Of a stretch of 36,388 bases of DNA, positions 1 through 33,410 are shown in pieces (the stretch's first letter is position 1; each line of letters begins with the position of its first letter). The stretch covers positions 3,007,735 to 3,044,122 of the forward strand of contig NC_057719.1 in assembly GCF_004010195.1 (NCBI RefSeq), given 5' to 3'. The DNA comes from Chiloscyllium plagiosum (lineage: Eukaryota). The notes under the pieces were generated by a model. The model was not told where the DNA came from. It did not search any database and worked only from the letters and a program-made list of their open reading frames with translations. The position numbers and the translations under genes were made by a program.

Positions 1-1085
1 TCCAATCTGTTGTCATTCAACTCATAGCCTGTCTGCCTGTTTTGCTACCAAAATAGATGACCTCATATTTATCCATATTACGCTGCACCTACCATGTATT
101 TGTCCACAAAATTACCTTGTCCAAATCATACTACATCCTCTCTGCAACCCCCTCACAGCATACTCACCCACTCAGCGTTGTGTCAGGTCTATGTCATCAA
201 ACTCGGAGATACGACACAGTTCCCTCTTCTAAATCATTAATATACATTGTGAATAGCTGGAGTTCAAGCACTGATCTGTGGTGTACCCATTAGACACCGC
301 CTGTTTCTCGGAAAAAAGACTAGTTTATTCCTGTTGCTTGTTTCTGTCTGCCAACCAGTTCTCAATCCATTTCAGTGCATAATTTCCAATCCTATGTGCT
401 TTAATTTAACATGTTAATCTCTTATGTGGGACATTTATTGAAAGTCTTCTGAAAATCCAAGTAAAACACATCCACTCGATCCCCAATCAACTCCACTAGT
501 TACATTCTCAAAAAAAGCAAAAGTGAGGACTGTAGATGCTGGAAACCAGAGTTTGGAAACCAGGCTCTATTCCTGATGAAGGAATTTTGCCCAAAACGTC
601 AATTTTCCTGCTCCTCGGATGCTGCCTGACCTGCTGTGTTTTTCCAGCACCACTCTGATCACATTCTCAAAAGATTCCAGCAGATTTGTCAAGCATGACT
701 TCCTCTTTGTAAATATATGCTATTTTTGTCTGATCCTGTGCTCTGCTATCAGATCTCTTACATTGGACGCTAGCATTTTTTCCACTACGATATTAGGCTA
801 ACACATCTATCTTTCACTGTCTTCTGTCTGTTTTCCTTCTTAAATAGTGGGGTTACATTGACTACCTTCCAACATGTAAGAACTGTTCCAGCATCTACAG
901 AATTTTGGAAGATGACCAGTAGTGATTCTGTTATTTCCAGGGCCACTTCCTTAAGTACTCTGGGCTGAAGGGCATCAGCTCCTGGGAATTCATCTATCTT
1001 TAATCCCAGCACCACATCCCCACTAATATTAATTTCTTTCAATTTCTCCTTTCCATTAGGATCTGCATTTCCCCATATTTATCAG
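1..1085 (-). mobile_element. Old CR1 LINE ORF2 (RT) fragment, interrupted at 514-660 by a PLE mini-element; continues at 3045-3320
   Basis: Minus-strand translation gives CR1 motifs (LKIDEFPGADALQPRVLKEVA...WKVVNVTPLFKK, ORF 785-1042) plus a decayed LFTMYINDLEEG segment near 220-260; many frameshifts. Confidence 0.85.
514..660. mobile_element. PLE family-1 pseudo-LTR mini-insertion A (internally inverted), decayed hammerhead at 569-604 (+)
   Basis: 12-bp TSD acattctcaaaa (502-513 / 661-672); sequence homologous to the other eight copies; ctgatga-aggaattttgccc-aaaacgtc has GAAA mutated to AAAA. Confidence 0.85.
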
Positions 1086-1283
1086 AAATTATTTCCAGAT
1101 TTTCTATTAGATTTTTATTGTCACACGTACTCAAATACAGGAGCACAGGAGTGCAGAGAAAAGTGTCTAATGTCATCATTTAAGATACAAAAATACCTAG
1201 CTACAAAAATAAACTTAGGTACAAAATAGTAAAAGAAATATAGTTTAACAAACTAAGTCTTACCTTCCTAGAATAAGTGGAAA

Positions 1284-2974
1284 GAACAAAGAGAACAAAG
1301 AAAATTTACAGCCAGGAACAGGGCCTTTGGTCCTCCGAACCTGAGCCGATCCAAATCCACTGTCTAAACCTGTCGCCCAATTCCTAAGCATCTGTATCCC
1401 TCTGCTCCCCACCTACTCATACATCTGTCCTGACGCATCTTAAATGAATCTACCGTGCCTGCCGCTACAACCTCTGCTGGCAATGCCTTCCAGACACCTA
1501 CCACCCTCTGTGTAAAGTACCTTCCGCGTGTATTTCCCCTTAAACTTTTCACCTCTCACCTTGAACGCGTGACCTCTCGTTATTGAATCCTTCACCCTGT
1601 CTATAGCCTTCATGATTTTGTAGACCTCAATCAGGTCAGCCCTCAATCTCCTTTTTTATAATGAAAACAAACCTAGCCTACTCAATCTCTCTTCATAGCT
1701 AGCACCTTCCATACCAGGCAGCATGCTTGTATACCTTCTCTGCACCCTCTCCAAAGTGTCCACATCCTTTTGGTAATGTGCTGACCAGAACTGTAAACAG
1801 TATTCTAAATGCAGCCAAACCAAAGCCTTGTACAATTTTAACATGATCTGCCAGCTCTTATGCTCAATACCCCATCCGATGAAGGCAAGCATACTATATG
1901 CCTTCTTAGCCACTCTATCCACCTGTGTAGCCACCTTCAGGGTATAATGGACCACTCCCAAATCTCTCTGCTCATCGACTTTTCCCAAGGTTCTTCTGTT
2001 TACAGTATACCTTCCAAAATGCATCACCTGACATTTGCCCAGATTGAACTCCATCTGCCACTTCTCTGCCCAACTCTCCAGTCTACCTATGTTCTCCTGT
2101 ATTCTTTGATAGTCCCCTGTGCTTTCTGCTACTCCACCAATCTTCATCTACAAACTTACTGATCAGACCACCAGTGCCCTCTTCCAGATTATTTATGTAT
2201 ATCACAAACAACAGTGATCCCTGTGGAACACCACTGGTGTTTCCATTTCCAGAAACTTCCTTCAACTACTACTCTGTGTATCCTGTTGCTCAACCAGTTC
2301 TTTATCCACCTCGCTGAACACTCTGCACACCATGCAACTTCACTTTCTCCATTTATTTACCATGGGAAACCTTATCATATGCCTGACTAAAGTCTATATG
2401 TATGACATCTACAGTCCTTCCTTCATCTATCAACTTGGTCACTTCCTCGAAGAACTCTATTAAGTTGGTAAGGCATGACACCCCCCTGCACAAAACCATG
2501 TTGCCTCTCACTGATAAGCACATTCTCTTCCAAATATAAATGGATCCTATCCCTCAGTACCTTCTCCAGCAACTTTTCCATCAGGCTCACTGGTCTGTAG
2601 TTATCTAGAATATCCCTACACCCTTCTTGTACAGGAGGACAACATTAGCAACTCTCCAGTCCTCCAGCACTTCACCTGTGTTTAAGGGTGCTACAAAGAT
2701 ATCTATCGGGGCCCCAGCAATTTCCTCTCTCGCCTCCCTCAGCAACCTGGGATAGATCCCATCTAGTCCTGGGGATTTGTCCACTTTAATAACCTTTAGC
2801 CTACCAAACACATCTTCCCTACTTATGTCAATGTGATCCAGACTAATCAAACTTCTATCTCTAATCTCAACATTCATCTTGTCCCTCTCCTCAGTGAACA
2901 CTGATGCAAAGTAATCATTGAGAATCTCACCCATTTTCTCAGGTTCGACACATAGCCTTCCATCATTATGCTTT
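1284..2974 (-). mobile_element. CR1 LINE, 5'-truncated, with 3' end
   Basis: ORFs 1656-2147, 2083-2265 and 2605-3009 carry CR1 RT motifs (SGVPQGS, WQMEFNLGKCQVMHFG, HLEYCLQFWS, KVDKSPGLDGIYPRLL); short-repeat tail at about 1284; candidate TSD agtggaaa (1276-1283 / 2975-2982). Confidence 0.92.
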
Positions 2975-3044
2975 AGTGGAAAATAAAGAAATAAGGTAAT
3001 TGTTAACATTAAAGTCCTTCTTAATATAAACTTGAAAAATAAAG

Positions 3045-3320
3045 GATTCTGTCTTCCTTTGTGAAGACAGGACTAAAGTAGATATTTAGTGGGTCTGCTA
3101 TCTCTTTGTTCCACATTCCCCAAATTTGCCTGTTTCTCACTGTAGAGAATCTTCTATACTCACCTTGACCAATTTTGTTTTTTCTTTTCACATATTTAGA
3201 GAAGCTTTTGCTATAGGTCTGTATGTTTTCTGCAAGCTTACACTCCTATTGTATTTCCCCCCTCTCACTCAGTCTGTTTGTCTCCCTTTGCTGTAACCTG
3301 AGCTGTTCCCAATCCTCAGG
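3045..3320 (-). mobile_element. Upstream continuation of the CR1 at 1-1085
   Basis: Minus strand reads NKEIADPLNIYFSPVFTKED, the CR1 ORF2 segment that precedes the kinase-like K-SPG-D motif seen at about 980. Confidence 0.7.
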
Positions 3321-3324
3321 GTTA

Positions 3325-3425
3325 TTAGCAAAAGGCAGAGAAATGGAGTTGAGGATTATCAGATCATCAGAATGGTGAAGCAGACTCAATGGACTGAATT
3401 ATGCTGCTACATCTTATGGTCTTTA
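3325..3425 (+). mobile_element. Short CR1 3'-UTR fragment
   Basis: Similar to the CR1 3' end at 30090-30215 (gcagactc.atgg.ctgaa...ttatg). Confidence 0.55.
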
Positions 3426-3431
3426 AAACCA

Positions 3432-3532
3432 ATGAAGTATAACTTCTCTTTAGTATTGTGGGAGACATGGCAGCCTATGAGTGCATTGCAAGGTCTCACA
3501 AACAATCATGTGATAATGACCAGACAATTGCT
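3432..3532 (-). mobile_element. Deu-domain SINE (SacSINE1/AmnSINE1-like) fragment
   Basis: Diverged reverse complement of the Deu core at 3670-3770. Confidence 0.5.
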
Positions 3533-3654
3533 TTAGACTTTTGTAGCTTTTTCATTTTAACCTTGTGTTCACTATTCCTATGTGTTGCTCCTCAGCAACA
3601 ACTTCAACTACTTATCCCACTGACCCCACCCATCCAAAATATCATGGACAATTT

Positions 3655-3835
3655 TTTCCCTCAGCTGACAGAAGATCTGGTAATTATCATGTTGCTGTTT
3701 ATGGGAGTTTGCTGTGCACAAATTAGCTGCTGTGGTTCCTGCATTGCAACAATGACTACACTTCAAAACTTTTGCTGTAAAACCAAATGTGTCCCCAAGA
3801 TTCCAAAGAGTATGATATGAACGCAAATCATTTCT
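3655..3835 (+). mobile_element. Deu-domain SINE (SacSINE1/AmnSINE1-like) fragment
   Basis: ttgctgtttatgggagtttgctgtgcacaaattagctgc...acaatgactacacttcaaaa matches the recalled Deu-domain consensus; homologous copies at 9640, 16276 and 23455. Confidence 0.7.
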
Positions 3836-4032
3836 TATATACCTAAAACCACCACTAACTAGGTTACTATTCAGTACGAAACCAATACTGAAATCATTAG
3901 ACTTAATATAATCCCTCCATCCATGTTTTCTCCAGGAACTAATTCTACTGAATCCATCTATACTGTCCACCGCAAAGCCCTTGGCAGGCACTTCATCACA
4001 GAAGAGTTGTTGCTCTTGTGATAAAAAGTTGG

Positions 4033-4325
4033 ATTAGATTACATTAGATTACATTACAGTGTGGAAACAGGCCCTTCGGCCCAACAAGTCCACACCGACC
4101 CGCCGAAGCGCAACCTACCCATACCCCTACATTTACCCCTTACCTAACACTACGGGCAATTTAGTATGGCCAATTCACCTGACCTGCACATCTTTGGACT
4201 GTGGGAGGAAACCGGAGCACCCGGAGGAAACCCACGCAGACACGGGGAGAACGTGCAAACTCCACACAGACAGTCGCCTGAGGCGGGAATTGAACCTGGG
4301 TCTCTGGCACTGTGAGGCAGCAGTT
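4033..4325 (-). mobile_element. HE1-type tRNA-derived SINE, 5' end slightly truncated
   Basis: Near-identical to 4949-5289; B box GGTTCAATTCC on minus strand; (agatt/acatt)n tail. Confidence 0.9.
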
Positions 4326-4948: not shown

Positions 4949-5289
4949 TTAGATTAGATTAGATTACTTAGATTAGATTAGATTAGATTACTTACAGTGT
5001 GGAAACAGGCCCTTCGGCCCAACAAGTCCACACCGACCCACCGAAGCGCAACCCACCCATACCCCTACATTTATCCCTTACCTAATTCTACGGGCAATTT
5101 AGCATGGCCAATTCACCTGACCTGCACATCTTTGGACTGTGAGAGGAAACCGGAGCACCCGGAGGAAACCCACGCAGACACGGGGAGAACGTGCAAACTC
5201 CACACAGTCAGTCGCCTGAGGCGGGAATTGAACCCGGGTCTCAGGCGCTGTGAGGCAGCAGTGCTAACCACTGTGCCACCGTGCTGCCC
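4949..5289 (-). mobile_element. HE1-type tRNA-derived SINE, full length
   Basis: Minus strand: A box TGGCACAGTGG, B box GGTTCAATTCC, conserved body, CR1-like 3' end and (TAATC)n tail; CpGs retained, so young. Confidence 0.92.
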
Positions 5290-5860: not shown

Positions 5861-5892
5861 TTAGAAGGATCTTGTGTTGCTATCAACAAATA

Positions 5893-8537: not shown

Positions 8538-8732
8538 GAGAAAATGAGGATTGCAGATGCTGGAGATCAGAGCTGAAAATGTGTTGCTGGAAAAGCGCAG
8601 CAGGTCAGGCAGCATCCAAGGAGCAGGAGAATCGACGTTTTGGGCAAGAAGGGCTCATGCCCGAAACGTCGATTCTCCTGCTCCTTGGATACTGCCTGAC
8701 CTGCTGCGCTTTTCCAGCAACACATTTTCAGC
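8538..8732. mobile_element. PLE family-1 fold-back mini-insertion B
   Basis: 76-bp inverted arms 8571-8646 / 8658-8733 (2 mismatches), 11-nt spacer; 33-nt unpaired tail 8538-8570; 18-bp TSD tgtgtccttttcta(t/a)gag (8520-8537 / 8733-8750); hammerhead lacks its CUGA start. Confidence 0.9.
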
Positions 8733-10020: not shown

Positions 10021-10565
10021 TAAAGAAAGGACAAGGATTTTGGAAAATGCTGCAAAAAGGGGACTATTCTCTGTAAAATCAGGATAACGGATTGACTTTC
10101 ACCTCCAACATAATATAGTTTGAATTTGAAAACTACTGTCATTCAGGTCAATCGTGGCAGCAGCAGGGTTGGCAGTGTTTGGCTCCTGAGTGCGGCCGCT
10201 CATTGCTCACACGGTGGGTTCTGCTGCACCCATGTGGCTCCATTGTTGTCTTTTCAGCTCGGTAATATTTTGTGGATTGGGTTGCCCTGGGGCCTCCTCC
10301 GGAGGACCGCCTATGGGATGCTGGGCCCTTGCAAATCTCCATCCCCGCTCCATCTCAGGTGGCGGCATCAGAAAACAGGCTAGGACCCGGGTGGTCGATG
10401 TCTAGCATCAGAGGAGGTACAGGATCTTGCAATGTGACTGTCTCCAGCTCAGAGGTGGTGGACACAGAAGCAACAGCGCTGGTGTCAGCAGGAAAGGAGC
10501 ACATTGCCAGAACCTTGGGGACGATGTCCAACAGCAGTGACTGGAGGTGAAGAGAGGGTGATGTT

Positions 10566-10988
10566 CATGAACATCAACTAGCCACGAAACGACATGACCA
10601 GCTATCCTTAGTAGCCACATACGCAGACAACAAGCAACATGAATTCGACTGGGACAACACTACTATCATAGGGCAAGCCAGACAGAGAACAGCCAGGGAA
10701 TTCCTAGAGGCATGGCATTCATCCACAAACTCCATCAACAAACACATCGACCTGGACCCAATATACCAACCACTACAGCGGACAGCTGAAACTGACAACC
10801 GGAAGCGGCAGGGACAGACCATTATAAACACCGGAGGAAACATCAAAGAAGCACTTCGCAGGAGGCTCCCAAGCACTGATGATGTCGCCTAGCCAGGGGA
10901 TGAAACGTTTGCAACAAAAACTTCCAGCTCGGCGAACAGAACCACAACAACGAGCACCCGAGCTACAAATCTTCGCACAACTTTGAAC
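10566..10988 (+). mobile_element. Penelope-like element family 2, 3' fragment (GIY-YIG C-terminus + pseudo-LTR)
   Basis: Uninterrupted HEHQLATKRHDQLSLVATYADNKQHEFDWDNTTIIGQARQRTAREFLEAWHSSTNSINKHIDLDPIYQPL; homologous to 13705-14118. Confidence 0.9.
10873..10912 (+). ncRNA. Minimal type-I hammerhead ribozyme motif (PLE family 2)
   Basis: GCA-CUGAUGA-U-[GUCGCCU AGCC AGGGGAU]-GAAAC-GUU-UGC: helix I GCA/UGC, helix II 6 of 7 bp, palindromic ACGU helix III. Confidence 0.75.
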
Positions 10989-11411
10989 TGCAACTTGTGA
11001 TTGCTGTCAGGATCAAATACAATTTCACAATGACCACCTTTACTGACTGTCTTCAGTACTCACCCATGACATTCCAGAGGGCTGCCGATGCCAATAGAAT
11101 GGTCCCTGCAGCAACAGAGCTGGCCCTTGGAAAGAGTGGAATATTAGTCAAAGCATAATCTTTGTGGGGTTGATTGTCAATGGAATACTGTTACCTTTAT
11201 CATCCTATAATTGCCATTCAACCAGATGGAAAGGCTTCAGTGATTACAAGGAGTGAAATAAATTTATCATACAGAGAACAGGTCTTTAATGTCATCCTTA
11301 ATTGATTCCTCACAATCAAACTAGTCTCTTAGCTCCCAAGCAAGCTTTGGTTTATATCCCCATTCATTACATCTGTCTAGAGCGCCACGCATTGTGATTT
11401 CAACAAAGCAT

Positions 11412-11700
11412 TAAATCCCTACTGTGCAGAAAGAGGCTGTTCAGCCCATCGAGTCTGCATTGCACCTCTGAAGAGCAAACTAAACAAACCAATCCCCTAC
11501 CCTACTCCCATAACCCTGCATTTACCATGGCAGATCCATATGGCGTGCACAATTTAGTACAGCCATTCCACCTTTGGACTGTGGGAGGAAACCGAGGCAC
11601 CTGGAGAAAACCCACACAAACACGGGGAGAATATGCAAATTCCACACAGAATATTGTCTGAGGGTGGAATCAAACCCGGGTCCCTGATGCTATGAGGCAA
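11412..11700 (-). mobile_element. Diverged HE1-type SINE
   Basis: tttggactgtgggaggaaacc...aacccgggtccctgatgctatgaggca, homologous to 4949-5289. Confidence 0.85.
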
Positions 11701-12255: not shown

Positions 12256-12483
12256 CACCCATCTCAGATATTCATCTGAGGCAAGTTTAAAGCCAGAGTG
12301 TAGGAGTATTCCGACATTGGAACTGGAAATATAGGTGCTACATGGGCACATTTGAGCAATTATCAGGAGGTAGCAATGTTTTATCTTTCAGACGATATAG
12401 ACTCATAGAGCCATAGAGTCATAGAGTTATACAGCACAGAATCAGACCTTTTGATCCTACTCATCATGTTGACCAGATATCCT

Positions 12484-14118
12484 GGATGTAAGTTTACTCA
12501 CTGAGCTGGAAGGTTCATTTTCAGGCATTTTGTCACCATATTAGGTAAGATAATCAGTAAGCCTCCAGTGAAGCACTGATGTTAGTGACCCACTATTTAT
12601 GTGTTTAGGCTTCCTTGAAGTTTGAAGTTTAAAGGAGCACCAATGTACAGATTAGCCAAGGAGCTACACCAAAGACTAAAACACTTAGTAGAAGACTCAG
12701 ACCACTCCATCCATGCCACCCAAGAAATTCTGAAGATCACCAAAAACACCAAAATAGAATAGGATGAAATAATCGTTTCCTTTCAAGTAACAGACCTGTT
12801 CACATCCATCAACATCAACTTGGCCAAGGAACACTGACTACACTATTAGAAGAACCAAAGACACCAAACACCACCAACTTCATCAGCAAGGACAATATCG
12901 ACAGGTTGACCTAAGTCATATCACCCACTTCACTTTCAATAACAAAACCTACAGACAAACCAACGGAACCCCCATGGGATAGCCGATATCAGGGTTCTTA
13001 GTAGAGGCAGTAATGCAGAGATTCAAACAAACAGCTCTGCCAACCATCCAACCCAAACTTTGGGTCCGCTACGTGGATGACCCATCACTAAATGAAACAA
13101 ATTAGAGGAAACCTTCAAGACCATCAATAATTCCCTTACTGGTATAAAAATTCACTAAAGAGGAGGCAAACAACAACAAACTGCCATTCCTAGATATCAC
13201 AGTAGAGCGAACAGCCAATGGAGAACTTCAAACCAGCATCTACAGGAAAACACACAGACCAAATACTGAACTGCAGTAGCAATCATCCCAACATCCACAA
13301 ACGAAGTTGCATTGGAACATTACTTCAATGAGCCACCACACTGCAGCACAGAGGAACTATGAAGAGCAGAGGAAAATCACTTATGCAGTGTATTCAAGAA
13401 GAACAGGTACCCAATGAACACAGATTGCCAATTTCTCAGCAACAAACCCAAACAAGCAGACAAACGCATCCAGAAACCCCATCCACTCTCCTCTACATCA
13501 AAGACATTTCAGAAATGACTGCCAGACTACTTAGACCCTTTGGCATCATGGTAGCCCACAAACCCATCAACACACTAAAACAGCAGCTAATGGACTTGAA
13601 GGACCCCATACAGACAACAGGCAAAACTAATGTCATTTCCAAAATACCGTGCAAGAACTGTAACAAACACGACATTGAACAAACGGGCAGAAAACTAGCC
13701 ACCAGGAACATCAACTAGCCACAAAAAGACATGACCCATTCTCGCTAGTATCCTTACATATGGATGAGGAAGGGCAACACATCCATCCTAGGACAAGACA
13801 AACTAAGACATACACGAGAATTACTAGAAGCATGACATTCCAACTGGAACTCTATCAACAAACACAGTGATTTGGACCCCATTTACCACCCTCTGAGAAA
13901 AAGAGCTGGAAATGGCATCACCACAAGAAATGGCATCAACAACCCAAGGAAACCTAAACACATAAATAGAAAGCGGGTCACTGACACCAGTGCTTCACTA
14001 GAGGTTCACTGATGATATTACCTAGTACAGTGATGGAACATCTGAAAATGAACCTTCCAGTTCAGCGAGCAAACTTACATGCAGAACCTCAACCTGAGCT
14101 ACAAATTTTCTCATGAAT
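12484..14118 (+). mobile_element. Penelope-like element family 2 (decayed RT + GIY-YIG) with inverted 5' pseudo-LTR
   Basis: NGTPMG*PISGFL, WVRYVDD, LPFLDI, NVISKIPCKNCNKHDIEQTGRKLATR; 12484-12618 is the reverse complement of about 13945-14083; 9-bp TSD agatatcct (12475-12483 / 14119-14127). Confidence 0.93.
14005..14046 (+). ncRNA. Decayed hammerhead motif in the 3' pseudo-LTR (decayed antisense copy at about 12516-12560)
   Basis: UUCA-CUGAUGA-U-stem-GGAAC-AUC-UGAA; helix I UUCA/UGAA intact, core GAAA mutated. Confidence 0.55.
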
Positions 14119-14838
14119 AGATATCCTAAATTAATCTAGTCACATTTGCCAGCATTTGGCCCAGATCCCTCTAAACCTTTCCTGTTCATATACCCATCAA
14201 ATGCCTTTTCAATGTTGTAATTGTACCAGACTTTAGCACCTCTTTTTACAGATCATTCCATACACACGCCACCTTCTGTGTGAAAAACCTTAAGTTCCTT
14301 TTGAATTATTCCCCTCTCACCTTAAATATATGCCCTCTAGTTTTGGACTGGGGAAAGGATCTTTACTCTTTCTGTGCCCGTCATGATTTTATACATCTCT
14401 ATAACGTCACCCTTCAGCCTCCAATGCTTCAGGGAAAAAAGCTGCAGTCTATTCAGCCTCTCCCTATAGCTCAAACCCTCCAATTCCTTGTAAATCTTTC
14501 CTGCACCCTTTCAAGTTTCACAACATCTTTGCTAAAGCATGGAGGCCAGAATTGAATGCAGTATTGTAAAAGTTGCCTAACCAATGTCATGTCCGCAACA
14601 TGACATTCCAACTCCAATACGCAATGCACTGACCATTAAAGGCAAGCATACCAAATGCCTTCTTCACCACCCTGCCTACCTGCGACACCATTTTCAAGGA
14701 ACTAGGAACCTGCATGCCTCGGTCTCTTTGTTCAGCAACACTCCCTAGGAGAAAGTGAGGTCTGCAGATGCTGGAGATCAAAGTTGAAACTTTATTGCTG
14801 GAACAGCACAGCAGGTCAGGCAGCATCCAGGGAACAGG

Positions 14839-14878
14839 AGATTCGACGTTTCGGGCACAGGCCCTTCTTCAGGAATCC
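14839..14878 (-). ncRNA. Minimal type-I hammerhead ribozyme, intact
   Basis: GGAUUC-CUGAAGA-A-GGGC-CUGU-GCCC-GAAAC-GUC-GAAUCU: 6-bp helix I, 4-bp helix II, full core; predicted cleavage between 14845 and 14844. Confidence 0.85.
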
Positions 14879-14911
14879 TGAAGAAGGGCCTGTGCCCGAA
14901 ACGTCGAATCT
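14872..14911 (+). ncRNA. Minimal type-I hammerhead ribozyme, mirror copy
   Basis: GGAAUC-CUGAAGA-A-GGGC-CUGU-GCCC-GAAAC-GUC-GAAUCU; helix I has one A.A mismatch at the palindrome centre; predicted cleavage after 14905. Confidence 0.75.
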
Positions 14912-15499
14912 CCTGTTCCCTGGATGCTGCCTGACCTGCTGTGCTGTTCCAGCAATAAAGTTTCAACACTCCCTAGGACCTTACCGTTAACTATATAAAT
15001 CCTGCCCTGATTTGCCTTACCAAAATGCAATACCTCACATTTCTCTACATTAAACTCCATCTGCCACTCCTCGGCACATCGACCCATCTGATCAAAATCC
15101 CATTGTACTCTGAGGTAACCTTCTTCACTGTCAATTACTCCATCGATTTTGGTGTCATCTGCAAACTTACTAACTATACCTCTTGTATTCACATCCAAAT
15201 CATTTGTATAAATGACCAAAAGCAGTGGACCCAGCACCGATGCTTGTGGCACACCACTGGTCACAGGCCTCCAGTCTGAAAAACAACCCTCTGCCGCCAC
15301 CTTCTGTCTCCTACCTTCAAGCCAAAGTTGTAGCCCCCTGGGATGGCTAGCCGTCCCAGGATTCCATATGATCTAACCTTGCTAACCAATCTACCATGCA
15401 GAACCTTATCAAGCATCTTGCTGAAGTCCATATGGACAGTTTCTAATGCTCTGCCTTTGTCAGTCTTCTTTGTCACCTCCTCAAAAGATGATTAAGCTA

Positions 15500-17629: not shown

Positions 17630-18092
17630 ACCCACCCTGGTCATTGTACACAAACACCCGAATCATTGTACATAAACCCTGATCATTGTACACACACAGA
17701 CACTCTGATCATTGTACATAGACACAAACACCCTCATCATTGTGTACACACACACACACACACACATACACACCCTGATCATTGTACATACACACGCACT
17801 GATTATTGTATGCACACACCCTGATCATTGTACATACACACGCACTGACCATTGTATGCGCACACCCTGACCATTGTACATACACACGCACTGATCATTG
17901 TATACACATACCCTGATCATTGTACATACACATACATACAGACACCCTCCCCATCATTGTACATACACACACACCCTCATCATTGTACACAAACACCCTC
18001 GTCATTGTACACACACACACACACCGTGATCATTGTACATACACACACACTGATCATTCTATACACACAACCTGATCATTGTACACATACAC
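17630..18092 (+). repeat. Minisatellite, unit CCCTGATCATTGTACA(YA)n of about 20-26 nt, about 18 units
   Basis: Directly visible tandem units. Confidence 0.92.
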
Positions 18093-19017: not shown

Positions 19018-19493
19018 CAAAAACAAGGATTGCAGATGCTGGACATACACACCCTGATCATTGTACATACACACGCACTGATTATTGTATGCACACACCC
19101 TGATCATTGTACATACACACACACTGACCATTGTATGCGCACACCCTGACCATTGTACATACACACGCACTGATCAATGATCAGGCAGCATCCTAGGAGC
19201 AGGAAAATCGACGTTTCGGTCAAAAGCCCTTCATCAGGAATAGAGGCATGGTGCCTGCAGAGTGGAGAGATAAATGAGAGGGGGCTGGAGGTGGGAAGAA
19301 AGTCGCATAGAGTACAATAGGTGAATGGGGGTGGGGATTGGGGTGATAGGTCATAGAGGAGGGCTTCCTTTCCACCTATCCACTCCACCCTCCTCTCTGA
19401 CCTATCACCTCCATCCCCACCCCCATTCACCTATTGTACTCTATGCTACTTTCTCCCCACCCCCACTCCCCTCTCATTTATCTCTCCACTCTG
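19018..19493. mobile_element. PLE family-1 mini-insertion D with fold-back 5' part and hammerhead at 19206-19241 (-)
   Basis: Imperfect TSD atggtt(t/c)tgtcaagg (about 19002-19017 / 19495-19509); inverted arms about 19258-19363 / 19388-19493; CUGAUGA-A-GGGC-UUUU-GACC-GAAAC-GUC. Confidence 0.85.
19043..19176 (+). repeat. 134-bp copy of minisatellite segment 17764-17897
   Basis: Identical but for one substitution, including the order of unit variants. Confidence 0.92.
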
Positions 19494-21654
19494 AATGGTT
19501 CTGTCAAGGGCAGGTCGTGTCTCACAAACCTCATTGAGTTTTTTGAGAAGATGACCAAGCATGTAGATGAGGGTAGGGCAGTTGACATGGTATACATGGA
19601 CTTCAATAGAGACTGTGATAAGGTTCCATATGGTAGGCTGTTGAGAAAAGGCAGAGGCATGGAATTGAGGGTGATTTCGCAGTTTGGAGTAGAAACTGGC
19701 TTTCTGAAAGAAGGTAGCGAGTGGTGGCTGATGGAAAATATTCAGCCTGGAGTCTGGTTACTAGTGGTGTACCACAAGGATCTGTTTTGGGACCACTGCT
19801 GTTTGTCAGTTTTATAAATGACTTAGACGTAGGCATAAATGGATGGATTAGTAAATTTGCAGATGACACTAAAGTCAGTGGAGTAGTGGATAGTTTGGAA
19901 GAATGTTATGGGTTGCAGGGGGACTTGGATAAACTGCAGAATTGGGCTGCGAGGTGGCAAATAGAGTTCAATGCAGCTAAATGTGAGGTGATGCACTTTG
20001 GGAAGAATAACAGGAAGGCAGGGTACTGGGTCAATGGAAAAATTCTTGGTAGTGTGGATGTGCAGAGGGATTCCATGTACATAGATCCCTGAAAGTTGCC
20101 ACCCAGGTGGATAGTGCTGTTAAAGCATACGGTGTGTTAGGTTTCATTCATAGAGGAATTGAGTTCCAGAGCCGCAAAATCATGCTGCAACTGTACAAAA
20201 CGCTAGTGCGGCCACACTTGGAATATTGTGTACAGTTCTGGTTGCCATATTTCGGGAAGGATGTGGAAGCATTGGAAAAGGTGCAGAGAAGATTTACCAG
20301 GATGTTCCCTGGTCTGGAGGGAAGGTCTTATGAGGAAAGACTGAGAGACTTGGGTCAGTTACCATTGGAAGGAAGAAGGCTAAGAGGGGATTTGATAGAG
20401 ACATACAAGATGATCAGAAGATTAGTTAGAATGGACAGTGAAAGTCATTTTCCTAGGACGTAACTATAAATTGAGGGGTGATCGATTTAAGACAGATGTC
20501 AGAGGCAGGTTCTTTACACAGAGAGTGATAGGGGCGTGGAATGCCCTACCTGCTAATGTAGTCAACTCAGCCACATGAGGGAGATTTAAACAATCCTTGG
20601 ATAAGCACATGGAATGTGATGGGATAGTATAGGGGACGAGCTGAGAATTGTTCACAGGTCGGCGCAGCATTGAGGGCCAAAGGGCCTGTTCTGTGCTGTG
20701 TTGTTCTATGATCAGGGTGTATATGTGTGTACAATGATCAGGGTGTTTGTGTATAAAATGCACATAACAATAAATAAATCAAATCAAAATCAAATCAATC
20801 TTCATGTTTGTCTGTGAGATCCATGCTGAAATGCTTTGGATCATTTAACCATGACAAAGAAATACGACTTAAATACGAATATGCTTACTTAATTCCTACA
20901 AATGTTGAGCAGTTTTAGAAATTATTATTGACATGTTCATGCTTTGAGAAAGCTGTTAACTTGATCAGTTCAATTGTTGTGACAAATGAATGCAGTGCCT
21001 ACATCTGAAATGTTCATCTATTAATAATATTAGAGGTCTCATCTTATAATTACTGAGACATCTTTGTGATGACCTTAATGATTACCTGTTGATCTAGACC
21101 TTTGGCATGGTTGGTTCCATTCAGCCACAGTTCTTTGCCTTGAAATCTTTCTCAAACACATAATTAACTATGTCCCACTTTACACATCATCACAAATTCA
21201 GAGCTGTGTCAGAGCAGTATGCACATTCACTGCATTAATACAGCATGCACCACGCTTTTGGAAATGAATCTTTTATTAAAATCATTAAAGCTGTAAATAT
21301 TTTAAAGTTTTAGATATCCATTCATAATTCAGCTGCTGACCCTGAGATTAATTTTAATGCTGAAGAATTGTCAGCAATTCTCAGCTAAGTAGCTGACCCA
21401 GCTAAGGCTTGATCTGTATCAGGTTATAGATAACCTTAAGGTTAGCTGTTCTTACAGCAGTTGACACGCTTCAAGAATGTCATGGTTTTGGATGTAGAAA
21501 TTCTCCAGGATTCCTGTTCATGGTTATTTCTGATTATCCCTGCCTGGAAGGGACACACAATCTCTGTGTGAAAGGTTGGGGAGTTAGATGGGGTATGTGC
21601 AATTATGAGACGGAGGCAGTTAGATGGGGTGCAATGTGTTACTGAGAGGATGAG

Positions 21655-22087: not shown

Positions 22088-22407
22088 AGATTAGATTAGA
22101 TTCCCTACAGTGTGGAAACACACCCTTTGGCCCAACCAGTCCACACCGACCCTCCGAAGAGTAATCCACTCAGACCCATTTCCCTCTGACTACTGCACCT
22201 AACACTATGGACAACTTAGCATGGCCAATCCACCTGACCTGCACATCTTTGGACTGTGGGAGGAAACTGGAGCACGCGGAGGAAATCCACACAGACACGG
22301 GGAGAATGTGCAAACTCCACACAGACAGTCACCCGAGGCTGGAATCGAACCTGGGACCCTGATGCTGTGAGGCAGCAGTGCTGACCACTGAGTCACTGTG
22401 CCGCCCC
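22088..22407 (-). mobile_element. HE1-type tRNA SINE, full length
   Basis: B box GGTTCGATTCC, body homologous to the other copies, (agatt)3 tail. Confidence 0.92.
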
Positions 22408-25632: not shown

Positions 25633-25999
25633 GCTGCACCTCAGGACAGAGAGAAGTTACCAGATGAGGAAACTGTGGGCTGGCTGATCATTGGAAATCC
25701 ACATTCTTTACCAGCATGTGGCTGAGGTCTTGCAAATTAAACAAACCAACCTAAAAATTCTGACTGCCTGCATAATTATGTGATTTCATTCTTATACTGA
25801 ATCCTATTTGTATTTGTTTGTAATATTCTTTGTTTAAAATCAGCTGATGGGGTGACCTGATGGGAAATTGTGATTTGGACATTGGAATATGAATGATTTG
25901 GAAAGTATCCATGAATAATGTCAAGAGATCCTGATATGCTGGCCTGACTTGGGGTGGAAGGTGGTGTAAGGGCTTTTTTTCAAAATAGGCCATTCAAAT

Positions 26000-26181
26000 G
26001 GGGTGGCACTGTGGCTCAATGGTTAGCACTGCTGCCTCACAGCGCCAGGGACCTGGGTTCAATTCCAGCCTGGGGCAACTGTCTGTGTGGAGTTTGCACA
26101 TTCTCCCCATGTCTGTGTCAGTCTCCTCCCACAATCCAAAGATGTGCAGGTTAGGTGAATTTCCCATAGTGTTCAGGGATG
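26000..26181 (+). mobile_element. HE1-type SINE 5' half; 3' half at 29034-29155
   Basis: A box TGGCTCAATGG, B box GGTTCAATTCC; the body resumes immediately after the CR1 tail at 29033. Confidence 0.88.
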
Positions 26182-27651
26182 GTGGAAAGGACGATGGATG
26201 AGGACTTGCCATCTGAGGTAGTTTGGGCTGAGGTTCGGAATAGGAAAGGTGAGGTCACCCTGTTAGGAGTCTTTTACAGGCCTCCCAATAGTCCTAGAAA
26301 CGTAGAAGAAAGGATAGGGAAGGTGATTCAGGAGATGAGTGACAGTAATAGGGTGGTGGTTATGGGGGACTTTAACTTTCCTGATATTGATTGGGAAAGC
26401 TATAGCTCAAGTTCGTTAGATGGGTCAGTGTTTGTTCAATGTGTGCAAGAGAGTTTCCTGACACAATATGTAGACAGGCCAACAAGAGGTGACGCCATAC
26501 TGGATTTGGTTCTGGGTAACGAACCAGGCCAGGTGTTAGAATTAGAGGTAAGTGAGCACTTTGGGGATAGTGACCATAATTCGGTGATTTTTACACTCAT
26601 GATGGAGAGGGATAAGTGTGTACTACAGGGCAAGAGTTATAGCTGGGGTCAGGGAAATTATGATGCGGTGAGGCATGACTTAGGATATGTGGCTTGGAAA
26701 AGTAGACTCCAAGGCAAGAGTGTAAATGATATGTGGAGCTTGTTCAAGGAGCAACTATTGAGTGTCCTTCATAATTATGTACCTGTCAGGCAGGGAGGAA
26801 AGGGTCATGCGAGGGAGCCGTGGTTTAATAAGGAATTGGAATCCCTTGTTAAATGGAAGAGGGCGGCCTATCCCAAGATGAGACGTGAAGGTTCAATGGG
26901 GGCGATTGAGAGTTATAGGGTAGCCAGGAAGGACCTGAAGAGAGAGCTAAAAGCAGAAAGGAGGGGACATGAAAGGTCCTTAGTCGGTAGGATTAGGGAA
27001 AACCCAAAGGCTTTCTATAGGTATGTTAGGAATAAAAGAATGACTAGGGTAGGAATAGGTCCAGTCAAGGATAGTAGTGGGAAGTTGCGTGTGGAGGCGG
27101 AAGAGATTGGGGAGACACTGAATGAATACTTTTCTTCAGTATTTACTCAGGAACACGGCATTGTCGTCGATGTGAATACTGAGTCACAAATAAGTAGAAT
27201 GGATGGCTTTAAGGTATGTAGAGAAGAGATGTTGGAAATCCTGGAAAAGGTGAAAATAGATAAGTCCCCTGGGCCTGATGGCATTTATCCTAGGATTCTC
27301 TGGGAAGCAAGGGAGGAGATTGCAGAGCCACTGGCCTTGATTTTTATGTCCTCTTTGTCTACAGGAGTAGTCCCAGAAGACTGGAGGATAGCAAATGTGG
27401 TACCCTTGTTCAAAAAGGGGAGTAGGGATAACCCTAGTAACTATAGGCCGGTGAGTCTCACTTCTGTTGTGGGCAAAGTCTTAGAGAGAATTGTAAGGGA
27501 TAGGATTTATGCACATCTGGATAGGAATAATGTGATCAAGGATAGTCAGCATGGTTTTGTGAAGGGCAAGTCGTGCCTCACAAACCTTATTGAATTCTTT
27601 GAAAAGGTGACGAAGGAGGTTGATGAGGGGAAAGCGGTAGATGTGGTATAA
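26179..27651 (+). pseudogene. CR1 ORF2 fragment, 490 aa open (C-terminal APE domain, linker, N-terminal RT)
   Basis: GVFYRPP, VVMGDFNFPDIDW, LDLVL, GDSDH, SPGPDGIYP, NYRPVSLTS, QHGFVKGKSCLTNL; 5'-truncated; TAA replaces the Y of VYMD 6 nt before the gap. Confidence 0.95.
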
Positions 27652-27657
27652 ATGGAT

Positions 27658-28419
27658 NNNNNNNNNNNNNNNNNNNNNNNNNNNNNNNNNNNNNNNNNNN
27701 NNNNNNNNNNNNNNNNNNNNNNNNNNNNNNNNNNNNNNNNNNNNNNNNNNNNNNNNNNNNNNNNNNNNNNNNNNNNNNNNNNNNNNNNNNNNNNNNNNNN
27801 NNNNNNNNNNNNNNNNNNNNNNNNNNNNNNNNNNNNNNNNNNNNNNNNNNNNNNNNNNNNNNNNNNNNNNNNNNNNNNNNNNNNNNNNNNNNNNNNNNNN
27901 NNNNNNNNNNNNNNNNNNNNNNNNNNNNNNNNNNNNNNNNNNNNNNNNNNNNNNNNNNNNNNNNNNNNNNNNNNNNNNNNNNNNNNNNNNNNNNNNNNNN
28001 NNNNNNNNNNNNNNNNNNNNNNNNNNNNNNNNNNNNNNNNNNNNNNNNNNNNNNNNNNNNNNNNNNNNNNNNNNNNNNNNNNNNNNNNNNNNNNNNNNNN
28101 NNNNNNNNNNNNNNNNNNNNNNNNNNNNNNNNNNNNNNNNNNNNNNNNNNNNNNNNNNNNNNNNNNNNNNNNNNNNNNNNNNNNNNNNNNNNNNNNNNNN
28201 NNNNNNNNNNNNNNNNNNNNNNNNNNNNNNNNNNNNNNNNNNNNNNNNNNNNNNNNNNNNNNNNNNNNNNNNNNNNNNNNNNNNNNNNNNNNNNNNNNNN
28301 NNNNNNNNNNNNNNNNNNNNNNNNNNNNNNNNNNNNNNNNNNNNNNNNNNNNNNNNNNNNNNNNNNNNNNNNNNNNNNNNNNNNNNNNNNNNNNNNNNNN
28401 NNNNNNNNNNNNNNNNNNN
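27658..28419. other. Assembly gap (762 N)
   Basis: Run of N. Confidence 1.
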
Positions 28420-29240: not shown

Positions 29241-29780
29241 CAGGACTGTGAGAAACTACAGAAGGTGGTGTGCACAGCTCAGACCCAGACCACCACGGAA
29301 GCCAACTTTCTATCCATGGACTCCATATACACGGCTCACTGCCACGGAAAAGCTGCTGACATCATCAAAGACACATCATGCCCCAGTAATGATCTCCTAC
29401 AACCTGTCAGACAGAAGATACAGAAGGCAAAAGTGAGGACTGCAGATGCTGGAAACCCTGAGTTTAGATCAGAGTGGTGCTGGCAAAGCACAGCAGGTCA
29501 GGCAGCATCTGAGGAGCAGGAAAATCGACGTTTCGGGCAAAAGCCCTTCATCAGAAGATACAGAAGCCTGAGCACACACACCAACAGGTTCAAGGACAGC
29601 TTCTTCCCTGCTGTTATTAGATTGATGAATAGACTCTCTCGCTTCAATGAGCAATGTATGCCTCTGTCTAAGTCTTTCTAATCTGTACATCCTTGCTTAC
29701 CATGACCTTCTTACCTTGCTCATAAACAAAGCTTTTCACTGTACTTCAGTACACTTGACAATAAATCAATCAGTCAATCA
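29241..29780 (+). mobile_element. Rex1/Babar-like LINE 3' end containing PLE mini-insertion E
   Basis: QDCEKLQKVVCTAQT...AADIIKD...RRYRSLSTHTNRFKDSFFPAVIRLMN; (aatc)n tail. Confidence 0.85.
29427..29551 (-). mobile_element. PLE family-1 mini-insertion E with intact hammerhead core at 29527-29554
   Basis: 15-bp TSD cagaagatacagaag (29412-29426 / 29552-29566); CUGAUGA-A-GGGC-UUUU-GCCC-GAAAC-GUC; element ends exactly at the start of the core. Confidence 0.92.
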
Positions 29781-29789
29781 AAAAAGAAA

Positions 29790-30215
29790 TTGATTGGGCC
29801 TATATTTGTTGGAATTTCGAAGAATAAGAGGCAACCTTACTGAAGCATAGAAGTCTCTTAGGGAACTTGGCGGGGGAGATATGGAGAGGTTGTTTCCACG
29901 TGTGGGAGAGTCGACACCAAAGGACATCATCTCAGAATAAGGAGGTCACACATTTAAAAGAGAAATTTGAGGAGGAATTTCTTCTCTTAGAGGGGAGTGA
30001 ATCTGTGGAATTCTTTACCACAGAGGGCTGTCGAGGCTGGGTCATTAAATATATTCAAGGCTGAGAGAGACAGATTTTTAATCAGTAAGGGAATGGGGAA
30101 AAGGCAAGAAAATGAATTTGAGGGATTGTCAGATCACCCATGGTTTCATTGAATGGTAGAGCAGACTCGATGGGCTGAATGGCCTACTACTGCTATTAAG
30201 TCTTTATGACTTATG
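29790..30215 (+). mobile_element. CR1 3' fragment
   Basis: LEFRRIRGNLTE...LWNSLPQRAVEA; 3' UTR similar to the 7346 copy. Confidence 0.85.
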
Positions 30216-30284
30216 AGGTCACATTGACTTGCATGACGAGTGAGTAAAGAGATTCTGTGGTAAATGCACTTCTACCCAGAATGG

Positions 30285-31475
30285 GTAGTGGTAGATCATG
30301 CCTCACAAATTTATTAGAGTTTTTTGATGAAGTGACCAGGAAGGTTGACGAGGGCAGTGTAGTAAATGTAGTTTATTTGGATTCCAGTAAGGCCTTTGAT
30401 AAGGTTCTACATGGTAGGCTACTCTGGAAGGTTAGATTGTATGGAATTAAGGGGAAGCTGGCAAATTAGATACACAATTGGTTTGATGGTAGGAAGCAGA
30501 GGGTAATAGAGGAAGAATGCTTATCGGACTGGAGGTCTGAGACTAGTGGAGTGCCTCAGGCATCTGTGCTGGGCCCATTGCTGTTTGTTATCTATATCAA
30601 TGATTTGGATGAGAATATACAGGCATGGTTAGTAAGTTGGCTGATGACATTAAAATAGAAGGTATCATGGACAGTGAGGAAGGTTCTCAGAAATTGGAGC
30701 ATTCTTGATCAGCTGGGGAAGTGGGCCGAGAAATGGCAAATGGAGTTTAATATAGATAAGTGTGAGGTCTTGCATTTTGGAAAGTCAGTTCAAGGTAGGA
30801 GTCTCATGGTGACTGGTAGGGCCTAAAGGAGTGTAGTGGAACAGAGGGACCTTGGAGATCAGGTTCTCTGAAAGTGAAGTCACAGGTAGACAAGGCAGTG
30901 AAGAAGGCTTTTGGCACACTGGCCTTTATCAGTCAGGGCATTGAATATGGAAGTTGGGAAGTTGAAGTCAAAAATGGTGGTGCTGGAAAAGCACAGCTGA
31001 TCTCGGGCAGCATCCGAGGAGCAGGAGGGTCGATGTTTCGAGCATAAGCCCTTCATCAGGAATACTGGGGGGGGGGGGGGGAAAGGTCATGGGAGGTTGG
31101 GCCCATGGGGGCAATAAATGGGAGGGAGGTGTGGGAGGGTGGCTAGAATTTGGTGATGGAGCAGGCCTAGGACTTGTATGTCCGTGGCGAAGTGGGAGGG
31201 GGAGTTGAAGTGTTCAGCCACAGGTTGATGGGATTGTTTAGTGTGTGTGTCCTAGAGATGTTCTTTGAAACATTCCCGCAATTTGGCATCCTGTCTTCCC
31301 AATGTAGAGGAGACCACATTGAGAGCACTTCCTTCTATGGAAGTTGGGAAGTTATGTTGCAGTTATACAGGATATTGGTAAGTCCGCACTTGGAGTATTG
31401 TGTTCAGTTTTGATCACCTTGTTATAAGAAGGATGTTATTAAACTGGAAGGAGTGGAGAAGAAATGTAAAAGGAT
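30285..31475 (+). mobile_element. CR1 RT fragment (30285-30963 + 31336-31475) split by PLE insertion F
   Basis: [41 protein letters not shown]. Confidence 0.9.
30964..31335 (-). mobile_element. PLE family-1 insertion F: pseudo-LTR with hammerhead (31028-31063) plus GIY-YIG remnant
   Basis: 18-bp TSD tatggaagttgggaagtt (30946-30963 / 31336-31353); minus strand about 31330-31250 reads CSQCGLLYIGKTG...FKEHL. Confidence 0.88.
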
Positions 31476-31735
31476 CTGTGGGTCTGGAATCACATGCAGG
31501 CCAGACCTTGTAAGGATGACAGGTTTCCCTCCTTGAAGAACATTAGTTAACCAGATGGGTTTTCCAACAATCAACAATGGATTCATTGTCATTATTAGAC
31601 TCCTGATTCCAGATTTTGACTGAATTCAAATTCCACCATCTGCCATATTGGGATTTGAACCCAGGTCCCCAGAACATTAGCCAAGTATCTGGTTTAATAG
31701 TCTAACAATAAAACAATGAGGCCATCACCTTCCCC
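31475..31735 (-). mobile_element. Second tRNA-derived SINE family
   Basis: Minus-strand B box GGTTCAAATCC; homologous to 25345-25632. Confidence 0.75.
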
Positions 31736-32014
31736 CAGAATATTGATTGCATTATTGTCCAAAAAACCTATTGATATCATTGTTGAATATACTCAATGTC
31801 GGAGCATCTACAGACCTCTGTGGTAGAGAATTTTAAAGATTGACATTCTTCATGGTTCCAATGGAACTTTTAAATTCACCTGGATAGAAATATGGCATTG
31901 GAAAACATAATGGAAGTATGGAACAGTCTCCCACAAAATGAAGTATTTGCTGGCTCATGTTAAATCTAGGTTATGACTTTATTTATTAGGAGAATGGGTT
32001 CCTCGTGTACACCA

Positions 32015-32146
32015 GGTTAAAAACAATGACTGCAGATGCTGGTAACCAGATTCTGGATGAGAGGCGCTAGAAAAGCTCAGCAGTTCAGGCAACATCCGAG
32101 GAGTAGTAAAATCGACATTTCGGGCAAAAGCCCTGATTCTGGCTAA
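32015..32146 (-). mobile_element. PLE family-1 mini-insertion G, truncated within the hammerhead
   Basis: 10-bp TSD gtgtacacca (32005-32014 / 32147-32156); homology ends at ...cgggcaaaagccct (32134). Confidence 0.85.
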
Positions 32147-32239
32147 GTGTACACCAACGATGCCAACATCTCACTCTTAAATGTAAATAAAAGCCCTCCT
32201 CAACAAACAACATTCAAAACCCAGCTTAATCAAGAGGTG

Positions 32240-32460
32240 CTGAAAATATGTTGCTGGAAAAGCGCAGCAGGTCAGGCAGCATCCAAGGAACAGGAGAATC
32301 AACGTTTCGGGCATAAGCCCTTCTTCAGGTCCTAACTTTCTCCTCGAAGATTTTAACCTACTGCAAATCCTCTTACAAGGATGCCTTCCTTGAAGAAGCT
32401 CTCTTCCTCCCAAAAAGGATCAGCTCTGATCTCCAGCATCTGCAGTCCTCACTTTCTCCT
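32240..32460. mobile_element. PLE family-1 mini-insertion H (3' tail on +, inverted hammerhead segment on -, extra internal 90 bp)
   Basis: TSD cttaa(t)caagaggtg (32225-32239 / 32459-32472); minus strand 32301-32328 reads CUGAAGA-A-GGGC-UUAU-GCCC-GAAAC-GUU. Confidence 0.88.
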
Positions 32461-32469
32461 TAACAAGAG

Positions 32470-32687
32470 GTGGTCATGGTAATATTGCTGGGCTAGTAAT
32501 CCAGAACCATCGGTCATTATTCTGGCAGCATGGGTTCGAATCCTACTGTGGTAGAATTTAAATTCAATACAAATCCAAATTCAGTAAAAAGCTAGTTTAA
32601 CAGCAACCATGTGACCACTTGATTGTTGTGAAAACTCAGGTCTCAGTGTCCTTTAGGGAAGGGCATCTGCTGCCTTCACCTGGCCTC
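32470..32687 (+). mobile_element. tRNA-derived SINE related to the second family
   Basis: B box GGTTCGAATCC at about 32533; body resembles the reverse complement of 31475-31735. Confidence 0.65.
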
Positions 32688-33410
32688 AACGATGGTGGTT
32701 CTGACCCCCATAATTATGCAGTATTGTGAGAGGTTAGTCATGGTTCGCTTTGGCTCTAGCCTCCCAGGAGAAAGTGAGGACTACAGATGCTGGAGAGTCA
32801 GAGTCGAAAAGGGTGGCACTGGAAAAGTACAGCCAGTCAGGCAGCAACCAAGGAGCAGGAGAATCGACGGTTCGTGCATAAGCCCTTCATCAGGAGGGTG
32901 GGGTGGTGGGGGCGGGGTGGGGGTGGGGGGGTGGTGGTGCGGGGATGTGGCGGAGGTGGTGGTGAAGGGAGTTGAGAGATAAATAGGAGAGTGGGGCTAT
33001 GGCTGTGGGGAATGTAGCTGGGAAGGCGATAGGTAGGTGGAAGTTGGGGGAGGGAGTGATGGTGATAGGTCGGAGGGAAGACTGGAGCAGATAGTCCAGC
33101 CTACCTTGATCCCTTGCAATTTGCCAATCGGTGCAACAGATACACAGCAGATGCCATCTCCCTGCCCCTACACTCATCCCTAGGACATCTGGGTAATAAA
33201 AATATCCACGTCAGGCTTCTACGTATTGACTACAGCTCTGCCTTAAACACTATAATCCCTACCAGACTTATCTCCAAACTCCAAGACCTATGTATCTGCC
33301 ATGGCCTCTGCAACTGGCTCCTCAGCTTCCTGACCCACAGGCCGCAAGCAGTGAAGAGAGGGAACAGCACCTCCTCCATGATAGTCCTCAACACTGGCAT
33401 CCCACAAGGG
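32688..33410 (+). mobile_element. Rex1/Babar-like RT fragment split by PLE insertion I
   Basis: VVLTPIIMQYCERLVM | DPLQFA...TADAIS...HVRLLRIDYSSALNTIIP...LNTGIPQG. Confidence 0.85.
32766..33093 (-). mobile_element. PLE family-1 insertion I with decayed hammerhead (32862-32896)
   Basis: aggagaaagtgaggactacagatgctggag terminus; G-rich pseudo-LTR like copy D; possible degraded TSD tc(t/c)agcct. Confidence 0.85.

Follow-up and report, generated by a model that had tools for sequence, protein, structure and literature searches.

The 36,388-nt stretch of Chiloscyllium plagiosum contig NC_057719.1 considered here (hereafter, the window; all positions are numbered along the whole stretch) has a G+C content of 42%, abounds in LINE (long interspersed nuclear element) remnants, and carries nine short insertions that share a hammerhead ribozyme motif and the terminus of a Penelope-like element (PLE). 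The locus raises the question of whether these insertions form a ribozyme-bearing family that propagates itself, as the initial annotation of the stretch had suggested by comparing them with short interspersed nuclear elements (SINEs), or are left behind by other elements. As detailed below, we consider it very likely that the nine insertions are by-products, i.e., dead-end copies, of PLEs and not a self-propagating ribozyme family. The explanation that we regard as the best, and as a probable one, is abortive, internally primed insertion by autonomous PLEs, with the reverse transcriptase (RT) running off the 5' end of the RNA. For the run-off step taken by itself, namely, that the RT stops at the upstream boundary of the copies because the RNA begins there, the balance tips only slightly in favor.

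Discrete ends of the insertions

All nine module-bearing insertions that the initial annotation had placed in the window are present, each about 130 to 480 nt long, and a tenth element was not found by blastn in the window. The shared module of about 120 nt that it had described is present as well, but four copies are much longer, namely, those starting at 19018 (to 19494), 30964 (to 31335), 32240 (to 32463), and 32766 (to about 33094).

Fourteen segments from the nine copies entered one alignment, in which coordinates such as -4 or +16 are counted relative to C3 of the hammerhead core, that is, to its front edge. Three landmarks could be recognized. The first, the terminus, is separated from C3 by 126, 131, 128, and 127 nt in the arms that are complete (4/4), corresponding to 118 to 123 nt from stem II. 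The second is where the four inverted hammerhead arms end on their outer side, 36, 36, 38, and 44 nt inside the terminus, and the tail-less copy at 30964 ends about 34 nt inside it, as read from the alignment; this stretch of 34 to 44 nt is the Penelope "tail." The third is the upstream end of the arms, found at -8, +16, +4, -4, -2, +1, +8, and -1, so that 8 of 11 arms end within -8 to +16, and both strands of helix II are kept in 10 of the 11. The length distribution is discrete; the smooth distribution that had been named as an argument against a discrete family was not seen.

Public sequencing runs, namely, two DNA runs of two organisms (X5 and X11) and the RNA runs X21 and X22, were compared on positions 19176 to 19387 (212 nt). 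The two DNA runs gave 26,720 and 21,286 contigs on this segment, where contig depth is not a copy number. Loose ends at 19239, 19240, and 19241 (-2, -3, and -4) occurred in 96, 117, and 310 contigs of X5 and in 94, 102, and 265 contigs of X11, for totals of 523 and 461, and were the best-supported downstream ends among the 18 of 376 rows listed. Their agreement of 0.32 to 0.34 points to unique flanks. Between the bins 19232 to 19239 and 19248 to 19255, the depth drops 15-fold and 19-fold in the DNA runs and 14-fold in RNA run X21. In the latter, 952 of 12,955,460 reads fell on the segment, with both strands about equally represented, as expected for passive transcription of embedded copies; no RNA run containing 29250 to 29750 was listed. 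Single contigs join the front edge of the hammerhead (19235 to 19246) back to module sequence lying right after the cleavage site (19180 to 19204), and such joints could be cDNA folded back through the helix I complement.

The same pile-up bears on another account of the third landmark, according to which the copies would still be by-products but the stop would come from processing or pausing at the DNA level, through endonuclease nicking or microhomology at the ATT at -4 to -2 or through cDNA fold-back by way of the helix I complement. In fact, the pile-up (-4 to -2) falls on ATT, the motif cut most often by PAc, a Poseidon element of Anolis carolinensis (Frangieh et al. 2024, PMC11167929), several X5 joints connect 19240/19241 with 19195 to 19204, and palindromic junctions have been interpreted as self-priming (PMC3846280). 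However, an ATT also follows the cleavage site, yet no pile-up appears there among the rows listed; the joints are scattered and come from single contigs; and a structural stall would presumably arise as the helices are entered from the 3' side and not once they have been passed. We regard a stop at the DNA level as unlikely.

Architecture of the copies and their target sites

The nine copies, with their target-site duplications (TSDs), are arranged as follows.

Copy 1, 514 to 660: terminal stretch of about 50 nt (antisense on the plus strand), followed by an inverted arm that starts at -8 and crosses the hammerhead to reach about 44 nt inside the terminus; C3 at 573, plus strand; G12 mutated and helix II broken; TSD 502-513/661-672.
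Copy 2, 8538 to 8732: fold-back; the direct arm ends in loop II (8646), and the inverted arm runs from core position 6 to 36 nt inside the terminus; neither arm holds the whole core; TSD 8520-8537/8733-8750.
Copy 3, 14751 to 14963: perfect 92-bp fold-back centered at -4/-2, with a 36-nt tail; two complete cores, with C3 at 14872 (minus strand) and 14878 (plus strand); TSD 14736-14750/14964-14978.
Copy 4, 19018 to 19494, minus strand: terminus, 137-nt minisatellite insert (19043 to 19179), hammerhead (C3 at 19237), and 128 nt of pyrimidine-rich upstream sequence, then a 106-nt inverted arm of the same upstream sequence; TSD 19003-19017/19495-19509.
Copy 5, 29427 to 29554, minus strand: plain stub from C3 (29554) to the terminus; core intact, native 5' strand of helix I absent; TSD 29412-29426/29552-29566, overlapping both ends by 3 nt.
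Copy 6, 30964 to 31335, minus strand: tail-less end, hammerhead (C3 at 31059), upstream sequence rich in C, and coding remnant of a probable endonuclease; TSD 30946-30963/31336-31353.
Probable GIY-YIG/CCHH endonuclease remnant, broken, 31153 to 31327, minus strand, inside copy 6: motif spacing CxxC-YIG-TG ... EH ... V..H.....H as in shark PLE proteins.
Copy 7, 32015 to 32146, minus strand: stub ending at helix II (+8), lacking CUGANGA; short templated filler; TSD 32005-32014/32147-32156.
Copy 8, 32240 to 32463, plus strand: inverted hammerhead arm (32241 to 32329, ending at -1), a terminus-like 15-mer plus 76 nt past it (32345 to 32420), then a 40-nt tail; TSD 32231-32239/32464-32472.
Copy 9, 32766 to 33094, minus strand: full tail, hammerhead (C3 at 32893; A15.1 mutated), and about 200 nt of C-rich upstream sequence; TSD marginal.

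The architecture differs in all nine copies, and no two of the nine share a junction within the window. Inverted arms occur in five of them (514, 8538, 14751, 19018, and 32240), and in 514, 8538, 14751, and 32240 an inverted hammerhead arm is attached to the terminus. The copies at 29427 and 32015 are simple stubs. The copies at 19018, 30964, and 32766 extend 128 to 276 nt upstream, and 19018 also inverts part of its own upstream sequence; the C-rich upstream sequence of copy 9 is 70% like the corresponding sequence of copy 4. We confirmed the three terminal subfamilies, with aggagaaagtg in 8538, 14751, 32240, and 32766, ggcaaaagtg in 514 and 29427, and aaaaacaa in 19018 and 32015; the copy at 30964 has no terminus.

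Eight copies had been credited with TSDs of 10 to 18 bp. Seven are firm in this range: 12 bp in 514, 15 bp in 14751 and in 29427, 10 bp in 32015, 15 bp with 1 mismatch in 19018, 14 bp exact (18 bp with 1 mismatch) in 8538, and, by a wider search, 18 bp in 30964. The same search gave 9 bp for 32240, and the TSD of 32766 is marginal, being 11 bp with 2 mismatches, a level reached by 113 of 2,000 random window pairs and so not above chance; an exact match of 10 or more occurred in 9 of 2,000 random pairs. In 8538, 14751, 19018, and 29427, the TSD ends overlap the terminus by 3 to 4 nt.

Two kinds of inserted sequence were also noticed. Junction fillers at 554 to 563 (copy 514) and at 32135 to 32143 (copy 32015) repeat 8 to 9 nt of the copy's own tail, which suggests slippage or re-priming at the junction. 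In 19018, the 137-nt piece at 19043 to 19179 replaces about 50 nt of the module and is 99% identical to a minisatellite 1.3 kb upstream (17764 to 17900); it resembles an insertion templated by DNA close by.

This architecture is relevant to the proposal of a discrete, SINE-like non-autonomous family, in which masters of about 125 nt or slightly more would carry their own promoter and be mobilized in trans by a PLE protein. Both ends of the copies are discrete and the copy number is high, as such a family would have it; moreover, PLE proteins are able to act in trans on RNA flanked by pseudo-long terminal repeats (pLTRs) (PMC3846280), non-autonomous PLE derivatives are known, i.e., MRC1 (PMC8557442) and the retrozymes, and the Penelope element of Drosophila virilis has an internal promoter. 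However, the junctions differ in all nine copies, a B box is present in none of the nine (the loose A-box pattern was uninformative), the window contains no tRNA gene and the copies no tRNA head, and no tandem array was found. Furthermore, one copy includes a coding remnant, probably of an endonuclease, another includes sequence beyond the terminus, and the stubs lack the downstream RNA that PAc needed. The SINE-like family proposed in the initial annotation was not supported, and we judge it improbable.

Probable endonuclease remnant and probable sequence past the terminus

With X placed at the breaks, the remnant in copy 30964 aligns to two shark PLE proteins (P0001 and P0002) along CxxC-YIG-TG...EH...H...H with the same spacing, and its score was reached by 1 of 2,000 shuffles against P0001 and by 2 of 2,000 against P0002. 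Parts of the remnant had no match in Pfam, PDB, Atlas (searched with the 33-aa part), or the protein database, and plain BLASTP of the remnant against P0001 gave no match. Copy 30964 probably holds a GIY-YIG/CCHH endonuclease remnant inside a unit bounded by an 18-bp TSD.

In copy 32240, the 76 nt after the terminus-like 15-mer are present nowhere else in the window and include an ATG at 32381. They are probably element sequence from downstream of the usual terminus and may contain the start of the element's open reading frame (ORF), and their position beyond the 15-mer suggests a template running past the priming site.

State of the hammerhead motif

On the strand opposite to the letters quoted in the initial annotation, the motif reads CUGAWGA-A-GGGC-NNNN-GCCC-GAAACGUC. 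Judged by its sequence features, the family pattern is that of a predicted minimal type I hammerhead, with the CUGANGA/GAAA/UH core, the extra base between 9 and 10.1, the G10.1-C11.1 pair, and the palindromic 15.2-16.2. A generic minimal-hammerhead scan of the window gave 5 perfect matches versus 0.13 expected (30 Markov shuffles, maximum 1). Among the 24 Rfam hits at an E value of ≤1, a hammerhead match was absent, and the Rfam microRNA hits at 19259 to 19498 correspond to the inverted arm of copy 19018. The core pattern occurred at no locus in metagenome contigs and at none in viral contigs. Matches of a 20-mer at 17 metagenome and 9 prokaryote loci were rejected as relatives, all 26 being chance matches that cover 19 to 40 nt of the module only.

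As the initial annotation had claimed, the helix II loop varies (UUUU four times, UUAU three times, UCAU and CUGU), and position 7 is either U or A. To call the core largely kept was generous: the family pattern is clear, but 6 of 11 arms keep every one of the 11 core positions, and 4 of 11 have an undamaged core, helix II, and ACGU palindrome at once. Helix I has at least 4 contiguous pairs in one of the eight arms scored, and this sole arm sits inside a 92-bp arm-to-arm hairpin of -198.5 kcal/mol. Two-sided, i.e., compensatory, changes were found in none of the four helix II pairs (eight arms, the sequences being few and very similar). Among the subfamilies, loop II and N7 are free to vary around a fixed core, which is compatible with a ribozyme in the source elements, and to this extent the expected pattern of variation is present; however, the sequence downstream of the motif is kept among the subfamilies as well as the core, and conservation alone therefore does not single out a ribozyme.

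In the two DNA runs, G12 is mutated in 11% and 16% of the contig depth, and the five CpG positions neighboring it are changed in 7 to 20% (six positions in or next to the core in all); a CpG outside the core (19193) is changed in 12% and 8% of the depth, among the 40 of 59 rows listed. Since G12 mutates at a rate like that of the CpG outside the core, the inserted copies show no sign of protection: their motifs decay at CpG rates, the essential G12 included. Of the very high-copy ribozyme reservoir envisaged in the initial annotation, the high copy number stands, but the case for working ribozymes is weak, given the decay of G12, the best arm lying in a hairpin, and a helix II lacking compensatory change.

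A further reading is that self-cleavage, or a circular retrozyme RNA, sets the template and that the copies are retrozyme monomers. The motif has the published features of minimal hammerhead ribozymes (PMC4209133), it allows a double-hammerhead fold of -13.1 kcal/mol to be drawn, and retrozymes have been reported in one chondrichthyan genome. Nevertheless, cleavage after C17 would remove the core, but the helix II strands are both present in all arms except one; none of the 11 arms stops at the cleavage site; and at 19209/19210, which corresponds to this site, there is neither a depth drop nor, among the rows listed, a pile of loose ends. Moreover, the hammerhead module is spanned by none of the 22 Tandem Repeats Finder rows, the double-hammerhead fold lies 5 kcal/mol above the dimer's minimum, and PAc does not need cleavage for insertion (PMC11167929). 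We therefore rejected the cleavage site as the 5' end; the retrozyme reading is largely refuted in this window, and we consider it very improbable.

Proposed origin of the insertions

On the tests run, the sequence features place the insertions in the class of truncated insertions of endonuclease-positive (EN+) PLEs, with the probable endonuclease remnant, the inverted copy with a tail, and the TSDs all present. We propose that the endonuclease would nick both target strands and that the RT would prime inside the RNA at the first landmark from one nick and, often, at the second landmark from the other. From both primers, copying would proceed toward the RNA 5' end for about 125 nt and stop at the third landmark, where the RNA presumably begins, and the product would be sealed as a stub or joined head-to-head with a second cDNA as a fold-back. 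The longer copies would have continued into the 3' untranslated region and coding sequence, either by way of a jump or because the transcript was a longer tandem one. Lacking the RNA that lies downstream of the priming site, the stubs would be dead on arrival; the motif would be of importance to the source elements alone, acting there as a dimer-type ribozyme, and would decay neutrally in the copies.

Several of these steps have been described for PAc, where priming takes place inside the RNA, at 111 to 118 nt from stem II, nicks made in both strands are extended, the tail spans the interval bounded by two start sites, and RNA to +172 was required with priming at +111 to +118, in line with a template that runs past the priming site (PMC11167929); published PLE tails measure 30 to 40 bp (PMC8557442) and 31 bp (PMC3846280). 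Two other ways of setting the ends were discarded: an ATG at -12 in 19018 as a conserved start, where another base is found in 98% of the depth, and a CAG at -18 as a splice acceptor, since there is no pile-up at -17 and no such RNA joint among the rows listed.

A number of observations weigh against abortive, internally primed insertion with run-off. Three of the 11 arms go on upstream, two of them after a switch to C-rich sequence at -5 and -2, and in a second PLE family of the window (see below) the inverted arm extends more than 40 nt upstream of its core, so that a start at helix I is not general. The Penelope start site of D. virilis is some 120 nt upstream of helix I, a distance made up of 46 bp and a 75-bp intron. 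The requirement of PAc for RNA to +172 was observed with an anole element in vitro (PMC11167929). The RNA 5' end was not seen, as no pile-up of read begins or ends occurs among the rows listed for X21 and the strands are about equal, and RNA run X22 has no reads on 19176 to 19387. The pile-up of loose ends coincides with ATT, the preferred nick site of PAc; the subfamilies differ at -5/-6, so that -4 probably collects ends lying a little further upstream as well; and divergence may account for part of the drop in depth. Finally, an autonomous partner was not found in the window, which holds no RT sequence from this family; protein searches with the remnant were blank, and the link to the endonuclease comes from one shuffle test.

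The element class, the hammerhead, and the inverted-plus-tail pattern have already been published, and the observation is mostly ordinary. The useful remainder is the sharp third boundary, according to which the ribozyme is present whole and uncleaved in the copied RNA, and this RNA probably begins just ahead of it. It is about an even chance that the stubs are the genomic record of an intermediate resembling a "strong stop," in which the RNA begins at helix I, the RT, primed some 125 nt downstream, runs off, and a template jump to the 3' repeat is required for a full-length copy. If so, many thousands of stubs and fold-backs would map the RNA 5' end and both priming sites in vivo, and ribozyme cleavage would be shown not to make the template. 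This bears on what PLE hammerheads do and on how pLTRs arise, and a stub-rich genome makes the question countable.

Other elements in the window

A second PLE family is present in canonical form at 12482 to 14118, with an inverted pLTR, a decayed RT (GTPMG, WVRYVDD, LPFLD), and GIY-YIG; its pLTR carries a hammerhead-like core at 14009, and the copy has a tail of about 34 nt and a 9-bp TSD (12475/14119). A protein piece from it has matches of 80% and 73% among the proteins of Stegostoma tigrinum. A third PLE remnant (10551 to 10990) comprises an endonuclease C terminus and, near 10876, a hammerhead-like core that is followed some 110 nt later by a terminus; it is 68% like the repeat at 14009, and a TSD was looked for and not found.

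A dispersed repeat of about 270 nt occurs at 4054 to 4324, 4992 to 5262, 11569 to 11699, 22109 to 22407, and 25996 to 26129, two copies being 96% identical; it may resemble the V-SINE/HE1 elements of sharks. A LINE open frame of 493 aa (26170 to 27651), with apurinic/apyrimidinic endonuclease and RT domains, ends just before the N gap at 27658 to 28419. At 35970 to 36277, an exact tandem duplication of 154 nt (99%) is possibly an assembly artifact or a very recent duplication.

Comparison with known systems

The insertion units of EN+ PLEs consist of a 5'-truncated copy, an adjacent inverted copy, a 30- to 40-bp tail, and a TSD (PMC8557442, PMC3846280). The copies described here share with them the inverted arm (5 of 9), the tail of 34 to 44 nt, the TSD of 9 to 18 bp, the palindromic junction, and the GIY-YIG-like remnant upstream of the repeat; different from them, most copies are cut to about 125 nt and end abruptly at the edge of the hammerhead. 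We found no description of a stop at the edge of helix I in the accessible parts of the PLE literature searched, a search that left Repbase, Dfam, and Fig. S2 of PMC11167929 outside; the latter figure, on the coverage of the template by genomic copies, may already display this boundary in Anolis.

The minimal type I hammerheads of PLEs have an extra base after A9, the G10.1-C11.1 pair, and a palindromic 15.2-16.2 (Cervera and De la Pena 2014, PMC4209133), and coelacanth and Xenopus hold thousands of such motifs, mostly single, plus close pairs on opposite strands (PMC4209133). Our family resembles these metazoan hammerheads in the extra base between 9 and 10.1, G10.1-C11.1, the lack of loop 3, the short helix I, the dispersed single motifs, and the opposite-strand pairs. 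Helix II has 4 bp here, versus 7 to 8 bp for Schistosoma (PMC4209133).

With the non-LTR retrozymes (PMC7229834; bioRxiv 10.64898/2026.07.22.740005), the copies have in common that they are non-coding, PLE derived, and dispersed as monomers with a type I hammerhead. However, retrozymes are head-to-tail tandem units with a complete hammerhead each (PMC7229834), whereas here we observed head-to-head repeats plus a tail and no tandem units.

Compared with PAc (PMC11167929), we noticed 3 to 4 nt of microhomology at the first primer in four copies, whereas PAc primed without homology in vitro, and the conserved ORF start that PAc has at stem II is not evident here. The two systems are alike in priming about 111 to 123 nt from stem II, in the two start sites that bound the tail, and in a template that continues past the priming site.

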